A DNA stretch of 64,000 nt from Octopus vulgaris (taxonomy: Eukaryota): positions 22,754,001 to 22,818,000 of the forward strand of contig OX597823.1 in NCBI GenBank assembly GCA_951406725.2, in the 5' to 3' direction. Both the position numbers and the translations under genes were made by a program. The notes under the pieces were generated by a model that was given only the letters and a program-made list of their open reading frames with translations, did not search any database and had not been told where the DNA came from. Shown in pieces: positions 11,481 to 60,598 of this stretch (positions within the stretch are counted from its first letter, which is position 1; every line of letters begins with the position of its first letter).

Positions 11481-11765
11481 ACAAAAACTAAAACAACAAA
11501 TTAAATTTATTAAACTTATTCTGCCATTTTCCACGCTGGTTATGTCAATAAGACGGTTTAATAACTGCGTTTGATGTAAGCGAGGTTTGAATGTAAATTA
11601 CCAAACTGTTTTTTAGGACATTACCAGCTTGAAAATGGCAAAATAAATTTAATGTTTCGATCAGGAAATCTTGGGTAGCTGAATCCCACAAGGGTTTTGT
11701 ATTTTTCTTATTAATAATAGTATATTTACTCTCTTAACTAATCGAGTGTTCTTACTGCTCGCACG

Positions 11766-11869
<104 letters not shown>

Positions 11870-11882
11870 TATTTAAATTTAA

Positions 11883-11935
11883 TTTTTCAAAATATTTTCG
11901 TCACTTTAAGACCGCGACCTGTTCACTGACAAAAA
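11883..11935 (-). ncRNA. Candidate minimal type I hammerhead ribozyme with G3-C8 core
   Basis: Minus strand: UUUUUgUCA GUGAACA g GUCGC ggucuuaaa GUGAC GAAA aUAu UU UGAAAAA. Stems I and II pair, stem III is palindromic (AAUAUU), and it abuts a (TA)n tract. Confidence 0.6.
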
Positions 11936-12679
11936 TACAAAAAGGGACAAGAACACAAAACCACCGGACAACAGTCACACGAATGCATCAGTGGTGACGA
12001 ACAGACAGAATAAGGGTTACTCAGTATCAGAATACAGTATAAATCATTAATGCTTATATAAGTTGCAATTCGAAAGCCATGCTCAATATCTACTTTTCCT
12101 GTTAACAGGATGGTTCAGCTGGTTTTCATCTGTTGGTTTGTATTTTAACGGTTGACAGAAACACAAGCCTCATACAAGACCAGAGTTAAAAACCCTAGAC
12201 TCATTTCAAGTCGAGAGAAGGCGTTCAAACATTTTTGCTAAATATAACATGCTTTTGCGTAGTCATATAACTGACCGGCTGAAGAATGCCAACAAACTGT
12301 TCGATCAACAGGAAATGCAGAGTATCTACCTTGGAATACACACACACATTCTCGTGTGCACACACTCACTCACATACAAGCCCACACGCATCCACACACA
12401 CACACACACACAGAATATTTCAAAATTAGAAAATAATAATTTTATATAAAATTGAGTTGGGGTTGGACGAAACACTGTTATGTATGTTTAAAACTTCCGA
12501 TGTAAAATAGGACCGCTAATTGCGGGACGCAATTAATGTTCCTTTCTTACGAAAACTCGGTTAAAGTTTTGTTGTATTTTTTATTCAGAAACTAAAATCA
12601 TTTAACGTATTTCTTTTTTCAGAACACACCAGCACCTACATGTTTCATCCTTCTCTCCTATTTGAGGTTTCCATCAATT

Positions 12680-23537: not shown

Positions 23538-24452
23538 CAGGGGTTGGACAAAATAATGGAAACACCAAGCATCATATCATCATTATTTTGAAATATCTAT
23601 AAAACCGTAAAAAGCTTGTTTATTTTTATGTTTTATATTTATTATTAGTGTTGCTTAATATGTTTTGTTAAAATTGTTGGGTTTTTTTCAGATATCATCA
23701 GAAAAAGGTATTTAAAATTCATTAAAATGACAGATCTATTGGGCTTTCAAAGAGGTCAAATTGTTGGTGCTCGTATGACAGGCGCTAGCGTAACGAAAAC
23801 AGCCGAAATGTTTGGTGTATCAAGAAGTACTGTCTCGAAAGTAATGACAGCCTTTGAGAAAGAGGGGAAAATATCCTCGTCGAAAGGAAACTCCGGAAGG
23901 AAACCAAAATTTTCAGATAGGGACCGTTGGACTCTTATGCGAATTGTTAGAAAGGATCACAAAAGTACAGCTCCCAAAATTACTGCAGAAACCTCCAGAA
24001 ACCAGTTTCCACAAAAGCTGTTCACCGGGAGCAGCACAAAGCCGGATTCACGGGAAGGCTGCAATCAGAAAATCACTACTTTCAAAAACAAACGTTGCAA
24101 ATCGTTTAGAGTGGAGTAAAAACCTACAGAATTGGTCCCTAGAGCAGTAGAAGAATGCTAAATTTGTTACTGAATGGCACGATGAACATTCTAATGAAGT
24201 TGAACATCTTTTCTAGTCACCATAGTCCCCAGATCTCAATATTATTGAATATTTATGGGGCATTTTAGAAAAACAAGTAAGGAGTTGATATCCTCTACCA
24301 TCATCACTACAAGAACTGGAGACTGTTTTAGCTGAAGAATGGACAAAAATTCCTTTGGAAACTATTCAAACTTTGTACGAGTCCATACCTCGTAGAATTC
24401 AAGCTGCCAAAGGCGGTCCTACCACATATTAAAATATATTTGTTGAAATTTT
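23538..24452 (+). mobile_element. Tc1-like transposon, internally deleted, 3' TIR lost
   Basis: TA-CAGGGGTTGGACAAAATAATGGAAACAC TIR; HTH FQRGQIVGARMTGASVTKTAEMFGVSRSTVSKV..GRKPK; SPDLNIIEYLWGILE. Confidence 0.9.
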
Positions 24453-30524: not shown

Positions 30525-30618
<94 letters not shown>

Positions 30619-30697
30619 AGGGTGGAAAGGAACACACGAGTTGATATATATGAAAAAACAAGTCAAAAATAGAAAATGCTAAGATGATTTTATAGTG

Positions 30698-30750
30698 AAT
30701 CTTTCAGTACCGGTTTCGGTCATTTTGAGACCTTTTCAACTGTAACGATT
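30698..30750 (-). ncRNA. Minimal type I hammerhead ribozyme, U3-A8 core (sense pLTR)
   Basis: Exact reverse complement of 32734-32786; same strand as the ORF. Confidence 0.78.
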
Positions 30751-31294
30751 AAATAATTAAATTTAGAAAAATTTAGAAAAATTAAAAGAAAGGTTTTTTT
30801 AAAGGAATACTTCCATAGTAGTCTTCAGATATTGGTGGCATTCTGCCTTTCTCTGACTCCCTTGTTTGCACTTGTGTATTCGAGGTCGTTGTGAGTTCTT
30901 GAGGGGGTGGGAGTGGGAAAATCTGGGCTGGTCAGTGGCGACCGGCAGTCGCTGCGTAGGCGTTATACTTAAAGACATTAGTGACAAGGTTAAGGGGTAG
31001 ATGGTGGAGAAGAAGAAGAAGAAGAAGAAGATGACGGTGTTGATGATGATGATGATGATGAAGAAGAAGAAGGAGAAGGAGAAGATGACGATGATGATGG
31101 TGGTGATGACGTTGACGACGATGATGATGATAATGATGATGATGAAGAAGAAGAGGAAGAAGAAGAAAAAAACAGAGAAGGGAGAATATGAATGGGTGAA
31201 GATATAGCTGTGATGGGGCGATTAGTAATGGATTCTATGGAATGTAATATTTGTGTGTGTATATATATTTCTTTTATTCTTAAGTTGAGGTATA

Positions 31295-32311
31295 TTAATT
31301 GTTTGTCGTAGACCCGTTAAGAAGTGGCCTGTATTTTATAATAAAGAGATTTTCTTTACTTATTCGTTGTCTCGAGGTTGTATCGTCCCTAAATTGGTAG
31401 AGGGGGAAAATTCTGAAGTTTGGTGTTTTTTTGTTGGCGCAAGTATCTATGTGTTGGCTAAAAGCTATTTTTCTGTTTTGGGGAATTTTTATCTGGGATC
31501 TGTGCAGGGCCATTCGTTTACGCAAACCATTTTTTGTTTGGCCTATGTACTGCTCTTGACACCCGGAGCAGGTTAGTGAGTATATTAGGTTCTCCGAAGC
31601 ACATGTGAAGTTGCTTTTCACTGTAAACCGTTGTCCCTGTTTGAAGGAGAACTCTGAACCCTCGATTAGATAGTCGCATATCCCGCAATTGGGTCTTCCA
31701 CATTTTTTTACTGTCGGCTTCTGTGTTGAAGAGTGAATTCGGGCTTGTGTTAGGAGACTTTTCATGGATCTAGGCTGTCTTTTGCTTTTTATGATCGTGT
31801 GTGTTTGGAGGATTGTGTTCATTCTGTGGTCTTTTTTTAGGAGGGGTATGTTGTGGAGGATGGTGCCGAAGGCTTCGTTATTGAGAGGGTTGTGTGTGGA
31901 GATGTATGGTAAGGCTTTTGGTTGTAAGTTTTTCTTTGATTTGGGATGTCTCAGTTCCTTGATGTTAAGTTGAAGGGCACGTTGAATGCACTTGTCAATA
32001 AGTGAAGGTGGATAGTTCCTGGTGATAAGGGTATCTTTTAGTTCTTGTAGTCGTGTGTCTCTGGTGTTTGCGTTAGAGACTATAGTGCATATCCTTTTTG
32101 CTAGATTGAAGGGGATATTCATCCTGGTGTGTCTAGGGTGGCATGAATTGAATGGAAGATATTGCTTAGAGTCTGTAGGCTTATAGTATATGTCTGTTTC
32201 TATTATATTATTAGCTTTCTTAATGAGGATATCGAGGAAGGGAAGTTGTTGCTGGCTATATTCCATCGTGAATTGGATGTTTACGTCCAGCCCGTTTAAA
32301 ATTTCCTGGAA
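31295..32311 (-). CDS. C-terminal part of PLE polyprotein: RT C-terminus/thumb, Zn linker, GIY-YIG endonuclease (5'-truncated)
   Basis: LNGLDVNIQFTME..LPFLDILI..TDIYYKPTDSKQYLPFNSCHP; CGRPNCGIC; NLIYSLTCSGCQEQYIGQT..RMALH; open with no stops up to the inversion junction at 32311. Confidence 0.92.
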   Translation of the reverse strand, partial: FQEILNGLDVNIQFTMEYSQQQLPFLDILIKKANNIIETDIYYKPTDSKQYLPFNSCHPRHTRMNIPFNLAKRICTIVSNANTRDTRLQELKDTLITRNYPPSLIDKCIQRALQLNIKELRHPKSKKNLQPKALPYISTHNPLNNEAFGTILHNIPLLKKDHRMNTILQTHTIIKSKRQPRSMKSLLTQARIHSSTQKPTVKKCGRPNCGICDYLIEGSEFSFKQGQRFTVKSNFTCASENLIYSLTCSGCQEQYIGQTKNGLRKRMALHRSQIKIPQNRKIAFSQHIDTCANKKTPNFRIFPLYQFRDDTTSRQRISKENLFIIKYRPLLNGSTTNN

Positions 32312-32733
32312 TTTTTTTCTTCTTCTTCCTCTTCTTCTTCATCATCATCATTATCATCATCATCGTCGTCAACGTCATCACCACCATCATCATCGTCATC
32401 TTCTCCTTCTCCTTCTTCTTCTTCTTCATCATCATCATCATCAACACCGTCATCTTCTTCTTCTTCTTCTACTTCTCCACCATCTACCCCTTAACCTTGT
32501 CACTAATGTCTTTAAGTATAACGCCTACGCAGCGACTGCCGGTCGCCACTGACCAGCCCAGATTTTCCCACTCCCACCCCCTCAAGAACTCACAACGACC
32601 TCGAATACACAAATGCAAACAAGGGAGTCAGAGAAAGGCAGAATGCCACCAATATCTGAAGACTACTATGGAAGTATTCCTTTAAAAAAACCTTTCTTTT
32701 AATTTTTCTAAATTTTTCTAAATTTAATTATTT

Positions 32734-32786
32734 AATCGTTACAGTTGAAAAGGTCTCAAAATGACCGAAACCGGTACTGAAAGATT
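32734..32786 (+). ncRNA. Minimal type I hammerhead ribozyme, U3-A8 core (inverted pLTR)
   Basis: AAUCguuaCAG UUGAAAA GGUC ucaaaau GACC GAAA C cg G UA CUGaaaGAUU; palindromic stem III ACCGGU; predicted cleavage after GUA at 32776. Confidence 0.78.
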
Positions 32787-32828
32787 CACTATAAAATCAT
32801 CTTAGCATTTTCTATTTTTGACTTGTTT

Positions 32829-32895
<67 letters not shown>

Positions 32896-33244
32896 TGAGA
32901 AAGTTGGTGTGTGAAATGTCATATTAGTAAATGTCATAAGCATAGAAGTTCCATTCTAGCAGACTGAGGTGGGAAGGCCATGTAGTTGTACAGTAAATAG
33001 AAGAATTCGAAATCTTCAGAGAATTATGTTCCAGGAAATGATAATCTTACAAAACGAAGTTATGGGACAGTGTCTGACTTGAAACTGATCTGAAATAAAG
33101 TAATATTCATGCGGCAGATGGAGCTTCATGGAGGATAGCTTAGGGAATGTATATATGCATTGTGAAGAGAATCGCAAGAAGAACGCAAGAGCGTGACGCC
33201 AAAAAGGTAACTTTGTATATGTTGGTTTCAAATTTAGACTCAAG

Positions 33245-49345: not shown

Positions 49346-50159
49346 AGGAAGATCCGCTATGGTCTTATATGCTACACCACTGGTTTTCAATTCATATTAA
49401 TCAAATTAATATTCAATTTTTGTCCCTTATTATATGTGTGTGTGTGTGTGTGTGTATTAGCAATTCGTATAAAATTGCATCAATGACTTGAACTTGAATA
49501 AGTGGTTTCACATAAATGAGGATAAATTAAAAAGGTTTGTTGTTATTATTATTACTGTTTGACTATTGTAATCACGTTTGTTGGTTCCTCATCAGGGAAA
49601 CGTTGTTGTGTTGCATTTGTTAAATAATTGTAAACCGTAATCCTCCCCCTTTCAGAGAAGGGGCTTTGGTTATTGTTTAAAACTTGAATTGTGTCCCTTT
49701 TTTGGGGAAATTGACAATATTTTCACCGTCTTTACGGAAGCATTTTTGTTAAAATGCCTTCGATAGATGAAAGTAAAAAAATGAATTTCGCTGCAGCCGT
49801 AACTTCTATACAAGAGGGAGGACAAGATCCAATTGATCGAAATTGCAAGAGAAAGGCCTACAATTCCAGTCTCTTATATATTTTGAGTATTGTTATCACT
49901 AGCGATATCAAGATATAACTTTGTATTTTGTATTTTATGTGTAGATGTATATATATAGATGTACATGTAATATGTACATATATATATATACACATATATA
50001 CATGCATAATATATCTACCCATACACACATACGCACACACACACATACATAGAGGCAGGTGTGGATGTGTGGTAACAAACTACGTTCCAAACACATGGTC
50101 CTCGGTTCAGTCCCACTGTGTGGTGACTTGGCATATGTAGGCACAAATACTCTGTCTTC

Positions 50160-51047
50160 ACATTTGCTGCGTGAGACATGTTTTAATGTTGACGAGCTTG
50201 CCGAGTACATAGCCGACAATGAGCCAAAGCTCCTCCCAGAACAGAAGTTCGCTTACAACTCCGTTGTTAATTCAGTCCGGGCCAAAGCTGGGGGGATTTT
50301 TTTCCTGGACACTCCTGGGGGCACTGGGAAAACTTTTGTCAACAAATTAATATTGGCTGAGATTAGGCGAACACAAGGCATTGCCCTAGCTGTGGCATCA
50401 TCTGGAATTGCGGCTACTTTGTTGCCAGGCGGCAGGACAGCTCACTCCACTTTCAAGCACCCGCTTGACTTAGCGAAGACTGAGACACCAACTTGCAACA
50501 TCAGTAACAGCTCCGATCAGGCAGAAGTCTTCAGACGATGCAAGCTTATCGTTTGGGATGAATGCACGATGGCCCACAGACGTGCTCTTCAGGCACTAGA
50601 TAGATCTCTCAGAGACATCAAACACTCTTCAGCTCCCATGGGAGGCATAACACTTCTTCTTTCAGGGGACTTCTGACAAACACTTCCCGTTATTCCCAAA
50701 GGGACTACAGCTGATGCAGTAAGTGCGTGTCTTAAGTCATCCACATTATGGCCACTGGTGAAGACTCTCAAACTTCACACCAATATGTATGCTCATATGC
50801 GACGTGATATCACATCAGCAGCATTTTCTCACACTCTCCTTGCACTTGGCGAAGGCAAAATACCAGGGAATGAAAATGGTAATATTGCCATCGATTCTAT
50901 TTGTACCATTGTTAAAACGCCTTCTGATCTCAGAGATGCAGTGTTCCCAGATCTACAAGCTAATTATCAGAATATGGATTTGATTGGCCAAAGGGCTATT
51001 CTGGCCTCGAGGAATAAAGCTGTTCACCATATTAATGGTGAAATGCT
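50160..51047 (+). pseudogene. Helitron PIF1-helicase fragment (related but distinct family)
   Basis: GGIFFLDTPGGTGKTFV, IVWDECTMAH, SGDF*QTLPVIPKG (TGA at 50674-50676 replaces Arg); colinear with the RepHel helicase. Confidence 0.92.
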
Positions 51048-51088
51048 ATTTGGCATTAGAATTTTTTCTTTTGCCCTTGTTTATAAGT

Positions 51089-51150
<62 letters not shown>

Positions 51151-51153
<3 letters not shown>

Positions 51154-51590
51154 GTAGGGAATATAATTCCAAAACTTACAGGGGGAAATTCAATTTAACA
51201 ATTTTAAATCAAATTTCACAATATATATGTATATAATTTAGAGAAAAACCTCTGTTAAACAATTCAATAAAGAAAGATGCTATTCGCGCCATATAGAAAA
51301 CATTATTTTTTATTATTTATTATCTTAGACCTGATGAGTGACTATTTTAAACAGAATTAATTTTAGTTCGATTTAATTTTGGATCGAATTGATTTTATTA
51401 TTATTATCTATTTGAAAATATAGCCACGAAACGCGCGTAGTCTTCTTACTACTATTTACTATTAATTGTACTTTATTGATTTTAAAAATAAGTTTTTTTA
51501 TAGTATGTTTTCTATATGGTGTGAATAACATCTTTCTTTATTCAATTGTTTAATAGAAGTTTTTCTCTAAATTATATACATATATTATAT
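51151..51590. mobile_element. HHR-bearing module with outward-facing ~80-bp inverted repeats (probable PLE pLTR pair)
   Basis: 51223-51303 is the reverse complement of 51505-51585; the left arm has an extra ~70-bp tail running into (TA)n. Confidence 0.7.
51327..51443 (+). ncRNA. Type I hammerhead ribozyme with ~90-nt stem II
   Basis: AGAC CUGAUGA GUGaCUAU..(AU-rich hairpin)..AUAGcCAC GAAA CG cg CG UA GUCU; canonical core; palindromic stem III ACGCGCGU; predicted cleavage after 51439. Confidence 0.8.
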
Positions 51591-55736: not shown

Positions 55737-58700
55737 TCACTGGAATACTTCTGTATATACGATGTTCCTAGCTGTCCGTTTGGGCGAAAACATGAAAACA
55801 TCATTGCGCCTCCCAACGCGTGAACAGCCCACGTAGAGTTGACCGTGGGCGAAGCACTGTTCGCCCAAATGTAACCCAGCGACTTGTAGCGTTTGGCCTT
55901 GGGATTTATTAATGGACATTGCGAAGCAGAGTTTAACAGGAAACTGAGAACGCCTGAAGTGGATTGGTAGGTCAGCGCCCGACGGTTGAAGGTGCATCCG
56001 TGGAATGAAGACGTCCTCTGCCTTCCCACAACCGGTAAGTATTGTGGCCGTTATTAAATGTGGTGCCAAATGTTTCACAACCAAACGTGTGCCGTTGCAC
56101 TGTTTAGGTGGAACCAAATTCCTGATGAGCATAATGGGCGCACCGACTTTTAACTTCAGGATGTGTGGTGGCAGGCCTGGCGGTTCAAGTGAATTCAGGA
56201 ATTCAACAGGATAATCGGCAAGCTGGGCGGGGTCTGCTGTCCTATCTATAGATTTGTAGACGTGGACATCACCAGGAATAGCTTCAAGTAGCTGGATATT
56301 GATGGAGTTGACGGTTGTATTTTTGGGTGCGAGAATAGCTCTGCCTGCCAGCCATTTTAGGTCGCGTAAAATGTTTTGTAGGTCGTGGAAGACAGCGTCC
56401 CGGAGGCTAGCAGGGGTGTCGACAATGGTGCAAAGTGAGTCCAATTGAACGTAGCCATCCGCATCAGACAGCATCCTATTTTCACCGAGCGATAAGAGGT
56501 CCCTGGAGAATGCAGCGGATCCGCTGTCACCAATTAACTGCGCGCGCATGTTAGTTTGGAGGTGCAAGGGCCGCACATGTGCCCAAAGAGCTGACGACTT
56601 AAGGCACGCGCGCACGGCATCGGCACGGGTTCCTTTTGGAATAACAGGTAGAGTCTGCCTGAAGTCTCCTGAAAGAAGTAAAGTTAATCCTCCCATGGGG
56701 GCCGTAGAGTCTCTCATGTCTTGCAGGGACCTGTCCAGTGCCTCAAGGGCGCCTTTGTGTGCCATAGTGCACTCGTCCCATACGATGAGTTTGCATCTGC
56801 GCAGAATGTCGGCCTGTTCTGAGTTCTTGGCGATGTTGCAGATAGGTGACTCGGACTTTGCCAGATCGAGCGGGAGTCTGAAGGCAGAGTGGGCGGTTCT
56901 GCCACCCGGAAGCAACGTGGCCGCGATACCAGAGGAAGCTACAGCCAGGGCAATGTCCGTGTTGCGTCTGACCTCTGCCAGAATTAGTTTAGTGACGAAG
57001 GTTTTGCCAGTGCCGCCGGGTGCATCAAGGAAGAAAATCCCCCCACGTTGCTGTCTGACAGAGTCTACGATGGTGTTGTAGGCTATGCGCTGGTCTGGAA
57101 GCAGCCGTGGTTCATTATCTTGGACGTACTGGTGCAGTTCCTCAATGCAGTAGGAAGTTTCGCGTAACAATTCAGCAGACATAACATTGGCGTGTTCACG
57201 TGTGGGTGGTGGAAGGCCGTACTCTGTTAAAGCAGACCCACCCATATCGATGACAGCGTCTTCGAGTTGAATGAGCGCAAAATTGTAAATGAAGTTGGTG
57301 AACGTGATCTCGGCGGAAGGGCAGTGTTGCTGAGCCGTACTTAAGAAGTCGTGCGACATGTCATCCCTGTATTTCATCCAGAGACTTAGTGGATCACTAA
57401 GCTGACATTTTTGAAGAAGGATTGCGAAAAGATGTCGTAGGGCCGAATGCGTTTGCAGTAAAGCACCCTCTGCCATCGTGGCGTCCCACTGGGAGTCATC
57501 CTCTAGAAGGCCAAGTCTCATACATGCTTCTCTGAAGGTGTCGCACAGAACCCCATTGACGGTACGTATATTGGCGAAACCTGTTGGACCAGTGACCTCA
57601 TGTAGAAGGAGACGGAGGTAGAAGCATTCTTGCTGGTTTGGCGGGATGTTGTAAACTCGACCCAGGCAGGAGTCAAACTTGACGCCTGGGAAGCTTTCGA
57701 CGTTTTTGCCGGATTTCCGTCGAACCCAGGTGTTTTTAGACCACACGAAGTACGATGGGACCTGTGGGTACAAAAGCGTTCGAGCGAAGTCATCACGTTG
57801 GCATAATTTGAAGAAACCAGTCAACGTTGTGTCTTTAGGGCTGGTGGCTATCTGCACAGCACTTTGCTCTGTGAAGTAAATCCGCTGTCCATTTTCCAAG
57901 TGTACAGCAAGCTGTACCACAGCCGGGTGTCTCTGATGGAGCGGGAAGCCGTAAATGCGCCAAAACGCTTCGTTGCTGCTGAGGTACCGGCCAGCCAAGT
58001 AGTTGGACACTTCGTCGCGACTGGTGGTCCTCTGGATGCTGAACATGGCAGCATCGCTGCCTTTGTTGATATATTTGCAGACATATTGTATTGACCTGAT
58101 GGAGCTGCAGAACTCAACGTTGATGTGGGCTTTGAATATCTTCGACAGGAGAGGACAGTAGGGGACAATGTAGCTGTTGTCCACTTGATGTCGCCCAACC
58201 ATAATCGTGCGGCCTCCATTGGCTGGACTCCTTCGTTTGTACAGCGGATACCCATCGCCGCCTGTTTGAGTCTCCAAAGTGAACCGTTTAGGGAATCCCT
58301 TTGAGCAGGCTAATCCGTTTTTGTAGCATGGTGTGTTGGCGTAATTTGGTCCACAGGGCCCGTGTACCATGGTAGTGCGGACAATTTCGTAGAGTCCGGG
58401 GTCCTCATCGGGGTCAGGAATCTCGGCGGAAATGAATTTGTCAATGTCATTAGTCTCGATTTTATGAGTGAGCCAAATTAAGATGTGAGCATGTGGCAAG
58501 CCCCTCTTTTGCCACTCGACCGAAAACATGTGGCACCTGACATGCCCGAAAATCTGACCCTTAACTATCAAATCCTTCATTTTGCCCAAATTCAGACGGA
58601 AAACCCTAGCAACGATGTCGTGTCGATGGGTGTGAGATTGACCCGGGAGGAGTTCGCGAGTGATTTCGTCGCAGCTGGGATTGCACGTGTAGGTGATAAA

Positions 58701-60598
58701 GAGGTCCGGCCGGCCGTAAATGCGCACGTAGGTCAAGGCGTCTTGGGTCCTTTCACGCATATATCGCGGTCCTCCCGTGAAGGTGGAGGGTAGAATGCAT
58801 GGCTTGCCGATGTTGCGAGGGTCATTTTCTTGTTGCAAACCGTCACGGAGATGAATGTAGGAGTCGGAGCGAAGTTTGGTTTGATTAAGTTTAATGTATA
58901 GCAGCCTTTCCGATTCCATTTTTGCGGCCATGTCGACGGCGAACTTGTTGAATAGCTGACGACAACGGGGAAATAAGTTGAACTCACCCTCCCTGACCAT
59001 GAACCGGTATGAGTAGAACGCCCTGCAGGAAACCGTCTTTGATGCCGCAGTAGTTTGATTGGAGGGCTGCCGTAAAGGAATTCCGAAGTGGTAGCCGTCT
59101 TCCCCATAAGGGAAAAGCAATGGATACTGAAGCGCGTCATAAGATCTGTGAGTCTCGCTGATCCTGTGTAGGTTGTTACCACGGGAGGAGATGATTATGT
59201 CACGGCTGTTGTGTTGCTCTCCGTGTATGACTGCGGCAATTTCGTTGCACGCAGGTGCGTTGAAACGGCGTTCGTGCTCCCCGTGGGGTCGTTTATCAGC
59301 ATCAATGACAACGGTGAAGTTTGGAGATGGAGCACTGTCCAAGGCATATCTGAAGCTGCAGACGTAGCTGTTGATATCATGAAGCATGGTTTGGAGACGG
59401 AGAAGAATGTCTTTGCGGGGAACATAGCTTGTACCCGGTATTATTCCAAGGCGTGCATCAACCTGGTGGTTGTAGTCGGCAATGAAGTATATTTGGAGGA
59501 AAGAAGACTGCTGAATCTCGTCTGGCAGAAGTGACCCAATAAGATGGTAGACCTGTCCCTGCACTTTGAAAGTAGGCATCCAGCCTTCTCTGGGAGGAAT
59601 TTTGGCCCCGAAAGAGGTCATTTGGAATGAGCAGTTGTACTTTCGAATTATTTCAAGGAATTGTGACGAATCGGGGGTTAAACCCGCCGCGAGATCCTTC
59701 AGTAGTTGAGGTGGTTCCCGTAGGGGTGGCAGGTCCACTTTGCCACCAGAGCAGCACAAACCAGGTGGCTCTCCGGGCCATTTCTTGGCTTTGCAAAACT
59801 GGCATACAATTGTCATTGACCCTATCTTGATGTCGTCACGCAAGGAGAAGTTAATTGTGGCGTCGTAGTTGAATGCTAGTGACAACCAGAAAGCGGGGGC
59901 AGGGGTACGTACACCACGAATGATATCCCGACGTTTGTTGATACTCTCAAGTCGAGTGCACCGTGCCTCAGCAGATTCAGATGCACGTGCGACAGCGGTA
60001 GCAGTGGCATCCCTTGAAAGCCTTTCAGCTCTCGCCTCAGCACCCTCTGAAGCCCTAGCAGAAGCAGTGTTAATGGCATGTCTGGATGTCCGAATAGTCC
60101 GTTGGTGTGGAGTTTCGGCAGATCGAGCCCTGGCTGTGTTTGCGGCGTTAGCAGCTTGGCGAGCTCTCCTCTGTTGAGGTGTTTGGCCATGGCTTTGTTT
60201 GCGGCGTCAGCATCTTGGCGAGTTCTCCTCTGCTGTGAGGTTTCGACAGATCGTGTCCTGGCAGTGCTAGTGGCGTTAGCCGCATTCCGAATGGCCCTTT
60301 GTTCGGGGTTCTCGCGAGCTCTGCGGATGGAAGCACAGTAAGAAGCCCGCATGTTTTGGCTGGACTGTTGCTCTTTCGTCAACCTCGAGCGGAGGGAAGA
60401 TCTGTACGCTGCGACCCTTGCAAGTCGGGTAGAACGGTCGCTAGTAGTTTCAGATGCCTGAGCAGCGGCATAACGGGAAGCTGTTTGCGAGAGGCGCAAG
60501 GCGGTTTCCTCGTGGGTCTCGCGTGCCCTTCTAGCCCTAGCAGCCGATGCCTTGGCCGTCCGAGGGCTGAGGAGGGTCCTTCTCTTCTTGGGTGGCAT
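55737..60598 (-). CDS. Helitron RepHel (HUH-Y2 Rep plus PIF1-family SF1B helicase); one frameshift near 60185
   Basis: Rep motifs PDLFITYTCNP, VEWQKRGLPHAHILI, YVCKYINK; helicase GGTGKT, IVWDEC, GDFRQTLP, FAMSINKSQGQT, HGQLYVGCSR. The frame of ORF 55737..59885 stays open upstream to ~60205; the N-terminal 22-aa repeats start at MPPKKRR (60598) in another frame. Confidence 0.93.

Follow-up and report, generated by a model that had tools for sequence, protein, structure and literature searches.

The motif and its layout

The minus strand of the window, the whole 64,000-nt stretch of Octopus vulgaris DNA that was analysed, carries a short fragment of the pLTR of a Penelope-like element (PLE), and within this fragment lies a minimal hammerhead motif in which positions 3 and 8 of the core are G and C. 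The features of the locus, in hammerhead numbering where residues are named, are as follows.

11870..11939, minus strand: PLE pLTR fragment (hammerhead plus about 20 nt); homology to other copies is confined to about 11939-11870
11927..11933, minus strand: 5' arm of stem I (UUUGUCA)
11920..11926, minus strand: core G3-U4-G5-A6-A7-C8-A9 (GUGAACA), with G3 at 11926 and C8 at 11921
11919, minus strand: unpaired G between A9 and G10.1, a G in 64 of 67 family copies
11900..11918, minus strand: stem II, GUCGC/GUGAC, 5 bp (11918-11914 with 11904-11900)
11897..11899, minus strand: G12-A13-A14
11891..11896, minus strand: palindrome AAUAUU (A15.1 to U16.1), through which two copies are predicted to make stem III
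11890, minus strand: U17, with the predicted cut at 11890/11889
11883..11889, minus strand: 3' arm of stem I, in which a copy-specific C>A at 11886 breaks a G-C pair
11762..11872, no strand assigned: (TA)n at 11839-11872 and (TG)n at 11762-11839, the 3' junction, 12 nt past the motif

These coordinates bear out the layout proposed in an earlier sequence-only reading, namely a minus-strand GUGAACA core followed by an extra G, a 5-bp stem II, AAUAUU and a (TA)n(TG)n tract. That reading had extended the element to 12005, which is too far, as the element spans just 11870-11939 and 11940-12005 has no match in other copies. The bulged g that it had placed in stem I is actually a G·A mismatch, which goes back to a C>A at 11886 peculiar to this copy; stem I of the family comprises 7 bp, and a C stands opposite the stem I G in 62 of 67 copies. 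Stem II of the window copy contains a G·U where most copies have G-C, its 9-nt loop II varies between subfamilies, and the fragment lacks a cap-proximal start, a tail and the beginning of the ORF. Because of the changes in stem I and stem II and the absence of both ends, the window copy is most likely a dead fragment. The (TA)n and (TG)n tracts are likely to represent the insertion target, and many copies of the family end in (AT)n.

A descriptor search of the window returned three matches, the G3-C8 motif and two copies with U3-A8, and none in 300 dinucleotide shuffles. Rfam at E<=1 gave no hammerhead match at the G3-C8 locus and reported weak HH9 matches, at 22.9 bits with a cut-off of 52, solely at the two U3-A8 copies. 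Folded alone, the window copy does not adopt a hammerhead fold (z -1.26). The silence of Rfam and the failure of the single copy to fold are what would be expected of a chance fold in AT-rich single-copy sequence, but this explanation is refuted by the empty shuffles together with the thousands of copies, the linkage to an ORF and the covariation across families described below, and we give it practically no credence.

A repeat family that keeps G3 and C8

The exact pattern with G3, A7 and C8 has 4,714 matches in the genome; when positions 3, 7 and 8 are freed there are 5,191, of which the same 4,714 are G3-C8, and the reversed control has 0. In a set of 67 copies anchored on downstream sequence, some of whose loci were retrieved by a query containing the motif, 54 carry G3-C8, 5 carry G3·G8 and 63 have UUU as the triplet, so that UUU, once suspected of being a mutation of the window copy, is the triplet of the family. 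U4, G5, A6, A9, G12, A13, A14, A15.1 and U16.1 are each kept in 65-67 of the 67, and the fraction of letters departing from the commonest is alike in the core (0.027) and the spacer (0.035) and is 0.167 in loop II. The proposal of a natural G3-C8 hammerhead motif belonging to a repeat family is thus upheld: the motif is multi-copy, and the family consensus, which had been suggested as the check, retains G3, C8 and the stems.

The family has several features of a type I hammerhead, namely stems I and II around the core, an NUH triplet (UUU) and a Watson-Crick 3:8 pair. It does not answer to the literal CUGANGA definition (C3, G8), having G3 and C8 in those places. It also shows what characterizes the minimal hammerheads (min-HHR) of PLEs: the extra nucleotide at 9/10.1, G10.1-C11.1, a palindromic 15/16 region and location in the pLTR.

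Contigs assembled from runs under four organism labels hold the family, and GTGAACA is seen under labels A, C and D, which do not by themselves establish that the organisms behind them are distinct. The motif is also covered by contigs from four runs that were merely guessed to be RNA, a coverage that is not evidence for transcription or cleavage. One contig of run X19 (L169:5705-5828), at a depth of about 1,500, carries a diverged copy whose stem I and loop II, as well as its palindrome, show changes.

The host element

Walking upstream from the motif leads through a microsatellite-rich 3' UTR of 1.0-1.8 kb to the end of a GIY-YIG coding region. The suspected link to a PLE is borne out by the six long-ORF copies fetched (L167-L172), in all of which the G3-C8 motif is physically linked to an RT and GIY-YIG ORF and lies about 1 kb after its stop. 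The frame in L167, which is 5'-truncated, is stop-free for 1025 aa and includes YVDD, a CxxxCxxC Cys linker and a GIY-YIG domain (YIGET; PF01541, E 1.8e-5, above cut-off); RVT_1 has no match in this frame. The linker that joins RT to EN, CQSNCAVC, fits the CX2-5CxxC trait of the Neptune or Nematis clade (PMC8557442); the protein tree was built with unnamed homologues.

At the other end of the element, the upstream pLTR of L169 continues through the tail into the ORF start, with the ATG 56 nt past the predicted cut and a stop just before it, which places the motif outside the ORF. The L169 ORF carries a stop and a frameshift, and among the copies examined, L167 with its truncation included, none is an intact full-length element; L071 also carries the ORF start. 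Copies terminate at two 3' sites separated by about 60 nt, frequently within (AT)n. In 30 of 292 non-(AT)n copies a BLAST filter found no shared continuation past the tail. Head-to-head inversions and tandems occur, as described for PLEs (PMC8557442). The family in this way displays the traits of EN+ PLEs, which include the pLTR, partial tandems, inverted 5'-truncated copies, a tail and AT-rich targets. The 3' UTR of one copy contains a donor-like GTAAGT (L043:4485-4495); none of the copies seen is spliced.

5' ends and the inferred transcript

The 5' ends of copies cluster at -24 to -20 relative to G3, in 17 of 39 copies selected by the tail and 23 of 56 selected by the motif. In the 23 short copies the base before A(-23)G(-22) is G in 16, C in 6 and A in 1, where the element itself has C, and one base further out G is found in a single copy of the 23. 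The p value for the extra G, 2e-7, derives from the 17 non-C cases under an assumed 33% G and from 21 loci that are not all independent. An untemplated 5' G marks a reverse-transcribed cap. We infer that transcription starts at A(-23), 23 nt before G3, which would place the hammerhead in the 5' UTR and the cut at about nt 60. Given this start and the extra G, the short copies are likely, as judged from their sequences, to derive from capped, uncleaved RNA. Splicing as the source of the 5'-end cluster is disfavoured, as 45 short copies share no upstream exon and many include the AG; a branch-point/acceptor-like sequence does lie just before -21, upstream of the motif in L014.

Among 100 listed copies lacking the upstream core, judged by eye, 2 begin exactly at the cut site, and in the same 100 there is no peak there, starts being no commoner than at -2, +8 or +16. 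These ends bear on the possibility that the motif is a fully active ribozyme that processes tandem transcripts into unit-length or circular RNA templates, as for PLEs and retrozymes, a model proposed in PMC4209133. Arrays of units of about 170-215 nt do exist (L005, L006, L010), and the palindrome is suited to dimer formation. However, copies start at the cap-like site and hold an uncut motif, few start at the cut, and the (AT)n that separates tandem units fits repeated insertion. Processing of this kind is therefore improbable in the octopus family.

Covariation of the 3:8 pair

Three octopus families with G3-C8, C3-G8 and U3-A8 form one protein clade (100/100; 50-59% identity), and the sister families share a homologous ORF start with the G3-C8 family. 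The C3-G8 sister has 3,503 hammerhead matches, and the U3-A8 sister is known from a single locus, L180. Across the three, stems I and II have undergone compensated changes, and U4-G5-A6, G10.1-C11.1 and GAAA are invariant. The motif is outside the ORF, and therefore coding does not account for the compensated changes. Among older relatives that share this stem II, the pair is C3-G8 (43 matches) or U3·G8, and none of the 43 C3-G8 matches has the stem III of the G3-C8 family. At the level of sequence comparison, the 3:8 pair covaries in nature across sister PLE families, and this covariation is the main evidence that the G3-C8 swap preserves a real pair.

Not all core changes have been compensated. 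In the C3-G8 sister family (L173-L179, L181, L182; e.g. L175:6892), C replaces A9 in 92 of 100 listed of the 3,503 matches, and older copies retain A9; core changes can therefore sweep through a family without compensation. Within the G3-C8 family there are 152 matches with G8, 92 of the 100 listed having a G3·G8 mismatch, which equals an engineered C3G mutant that was inactive in tests. The G3·G8 copies, about 150 in number, form a lineage with its own diagnostic sites that has spread as a subfamily. They are strongly enriched on contig C16, mostly at 1.3-10.6 Mb (L247-L266), which accounts for 34 of 100 listed matches.

The spread of the G3·G8 lineage and the dominance of A9C in the sister family are consistent with a second possibility, that the motif is the catalytically silent descendant of a hammerhead, retained because it folds in the 5' UTR, binds protein or serves as promoter sequence, in which the swap drifted through a tolerated G3·G8 or C3·C8. 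The 5' ends bear no cut-site footprint, catalytic mutants left insertion in vitro unaffected in the experiments given in PMC11167929, and at 24-60 nt from the inferred start the core is in a region whose sequence could be constrained by promoter elements. Drift of this sort is harder to reconcile with the pairing of positions 3 and 8 in all three sister families despite different letters, or with the constancy of the other core positions while spacer, stem I and loop II diverged between families. The phylogeny also speaks against it: two of the three trees nest the G8 copies within the C8 copies, the third giving no resolution, the root being unstable and rows without a linked hammerhead having mostly been dropped from one of the three, and the youngest ORF-bearing copies carry C8. 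We regard a silent descendant as possible but rather unlikely.

Folding and a proposed mechanism

On the whole we favour, as the probable interpretation, a truncated copy of a minimal type I hammerhead that an EN-bearing PLE of a G3-C8 family carries in its pLTR, and which likely acts as a slow self-cleaving switch in the 5' UTR assisted by dimer formation or by protein. Monomers of the family fold stems I and II, the best fold extending stem I by a G3·U17 wobble. The 6-nt palindrome forms a duplex of only -0.2 kcal/mol, which is weak; extended to 10 nt (-3.8) it would hide A13, A14 and U17 and so be an inactive duplex, and cofolding of two copies did not yield an active dimer. Catalysis may in fact be dispensable or absent, in light of the spread of G3·G8, the A9C of the sister family and a weak palindrome able to form an inactive duplex.

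The PLE of Anolis provides a precedent: its cleavage needs protein, uncut RNA is the main template and RT starts at two internal sites (PMC11167929). In the proposed octopus cycle, a capped element RNA would start at the A 23 nt before G3, and the element protein would bind near the ORF start and prime reverse transcription at two sites, which would correspond to the two 3' ends about 60 nt apart and would yield thousands of copies of uncut RNA of about 150-210 nt. Stem III is predicted to form by way of a palindrome partner or with the help of protein, leading to a cut after U17 at about nt 60; such a cut, upstream of the ATG, would remove the cap, and the RNA would be lost to translation and copying.

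In this scheme Watson-Crick pairing at 3:8 would be maintained by G3-C8, and in the engineered Anolis PLE the C3G/G8C double mutant partly restores cleavage (PMC11167929). A C at position 17 could mispair with G3, which U17 would prevent. The UUU triplet may accordingly suit G3 rather than being a defect, because the wobble would become a G-C pair with C17, and the activity of a G3-C8 variant was reported to be lower with C17 than with G17, the latter as 'data not shown' (PMC3884650). U17 is also present in the C3-G8 relatives. A more speculative extension, which we put forward only tentatively, is that octopus PLEs have walked the 3:8 pair through C-G, U-A and G-C via inactive intermediates that still transposed, the pair being kept because a protein-triggered decapping switch in its own 5' UTR limits the element, and G3-C8 being possible because U17 pre-existed.

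Relation to known hammerheads

The closest known counterparts are the min-HHR that metazoan PLEs carry (Cervera and de la Pena 2014, PMC4209133), which are likewise found in the pLTR with an extra nucleotide at A9/G10.1, G10.1-C11.1 and a palindromic stem III region, occur mostly as single truncated or inverted copies and commonly have U17 among the examples given. In the 56 representatives aligned in that work G3 is found in none, position 3 being C or U only, whereas the octopus family has GUGANCA; it further differs in its longer stem I (7 bp) and in having G as the extra nucleotide where the consensus is H. The PAc element of Anolis carolinensis (Poseidon; Frangieh et al. 2024, PMC11167929) resembles the octopus family in that its hammerhead sits where the ORF has its 5' end, its targets are AT-rich, two 3' ends define a tail and uncut RNA serves as template. 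In PAc, as described there, engineered G3-C8 gives a partial rescue and stem II contains the start of the ORF, whereas in octopus G3-C8 is the natural majority and the ATG follows the predicted cut by 56 nt; the tail of about 60 nt and the Cys-linker protein also set the octopus family apart.

Natural covariation of the 3:8 pair has a precedent in U3-A8 variants (Perreault et al. 2011, PMC3088659; PMC4209133). The octopus pair, with purine 3 and pyrimidine 8, is two transversions from C3-G8 and is not among the variants in the available part of PMC3088659. Non-LTR retrozymes (PMC7229834) are similar in that short units bearing a type I hammerhead are repeated, but as described they have canonical hammerheads and no ORF, whereas the octopus motif is minimal and resides in a coding PLE; a non-LTR retrozyme is defined as a short tandem unit that is non-coding and has a canonical hammerhead, which the octopus family is not. 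A natural G3-C8 hammerhead was not found in the part of the literature searched, where the form appears only as an engineered mutant. Natural G3-C8 is thus provisionally a new form of the PLE minimal hammerhead, U3-A8 having already been published.

When the hammerhead core is rescued by engineering, G3-C8 is the standard choice, and a natural family with thousands of copies, including recently active members that bear an ORF, suggests that evolution uses the swap as well. Such families escape searches based on CUGANGA or UUGANAA, as this one escaped Rfam. Within a single genome, related elements make up a natural allelic series comprising C3-G8, U3-A8, G3-C8, G3·G8 and A9C, and with this series and the inferred cap site the role of PLE hammerheads becomes directly testable.

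Other elements in the window

The two U3-A8 hammerheads in the window, at 30739 (minus) and 32745 (plus), belong to a different family from the G3-C8 motif, with a protein only about 28% identical over a short stretch. They lie in a 5'-truncated PLE of this distant family at 30550-32900, which comprises an ORF at 31295-32338 (minus) and an inverted 3' UTR copy. That ORF was considered as the partner of the G3-C8 motif and rejected, as it belongs to the distant U3-A8 family. All 121 of 121 scored genome hits of the distant family are 98-100% identical, and many of them have 784-aa frames behind an overlapping ORF1; the family is therefore very young. The stem-loop II region of one G3-C8 subfamily shares GGTCTCAAA with the distant family (11919-11905 against 32752-32761), which may be chance.

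Elsewhere in the window, an ORF of 1489 aa at 55737-60206 (minus) is, from its motifs, presumably a Helitron Rep/helicase-like protein, and a second fragment at 50053-51198 presumably a piece of a helicase. A helix-turn-helix ORF fragment at 23649-24119 we take to be Tc1/mariner-like.
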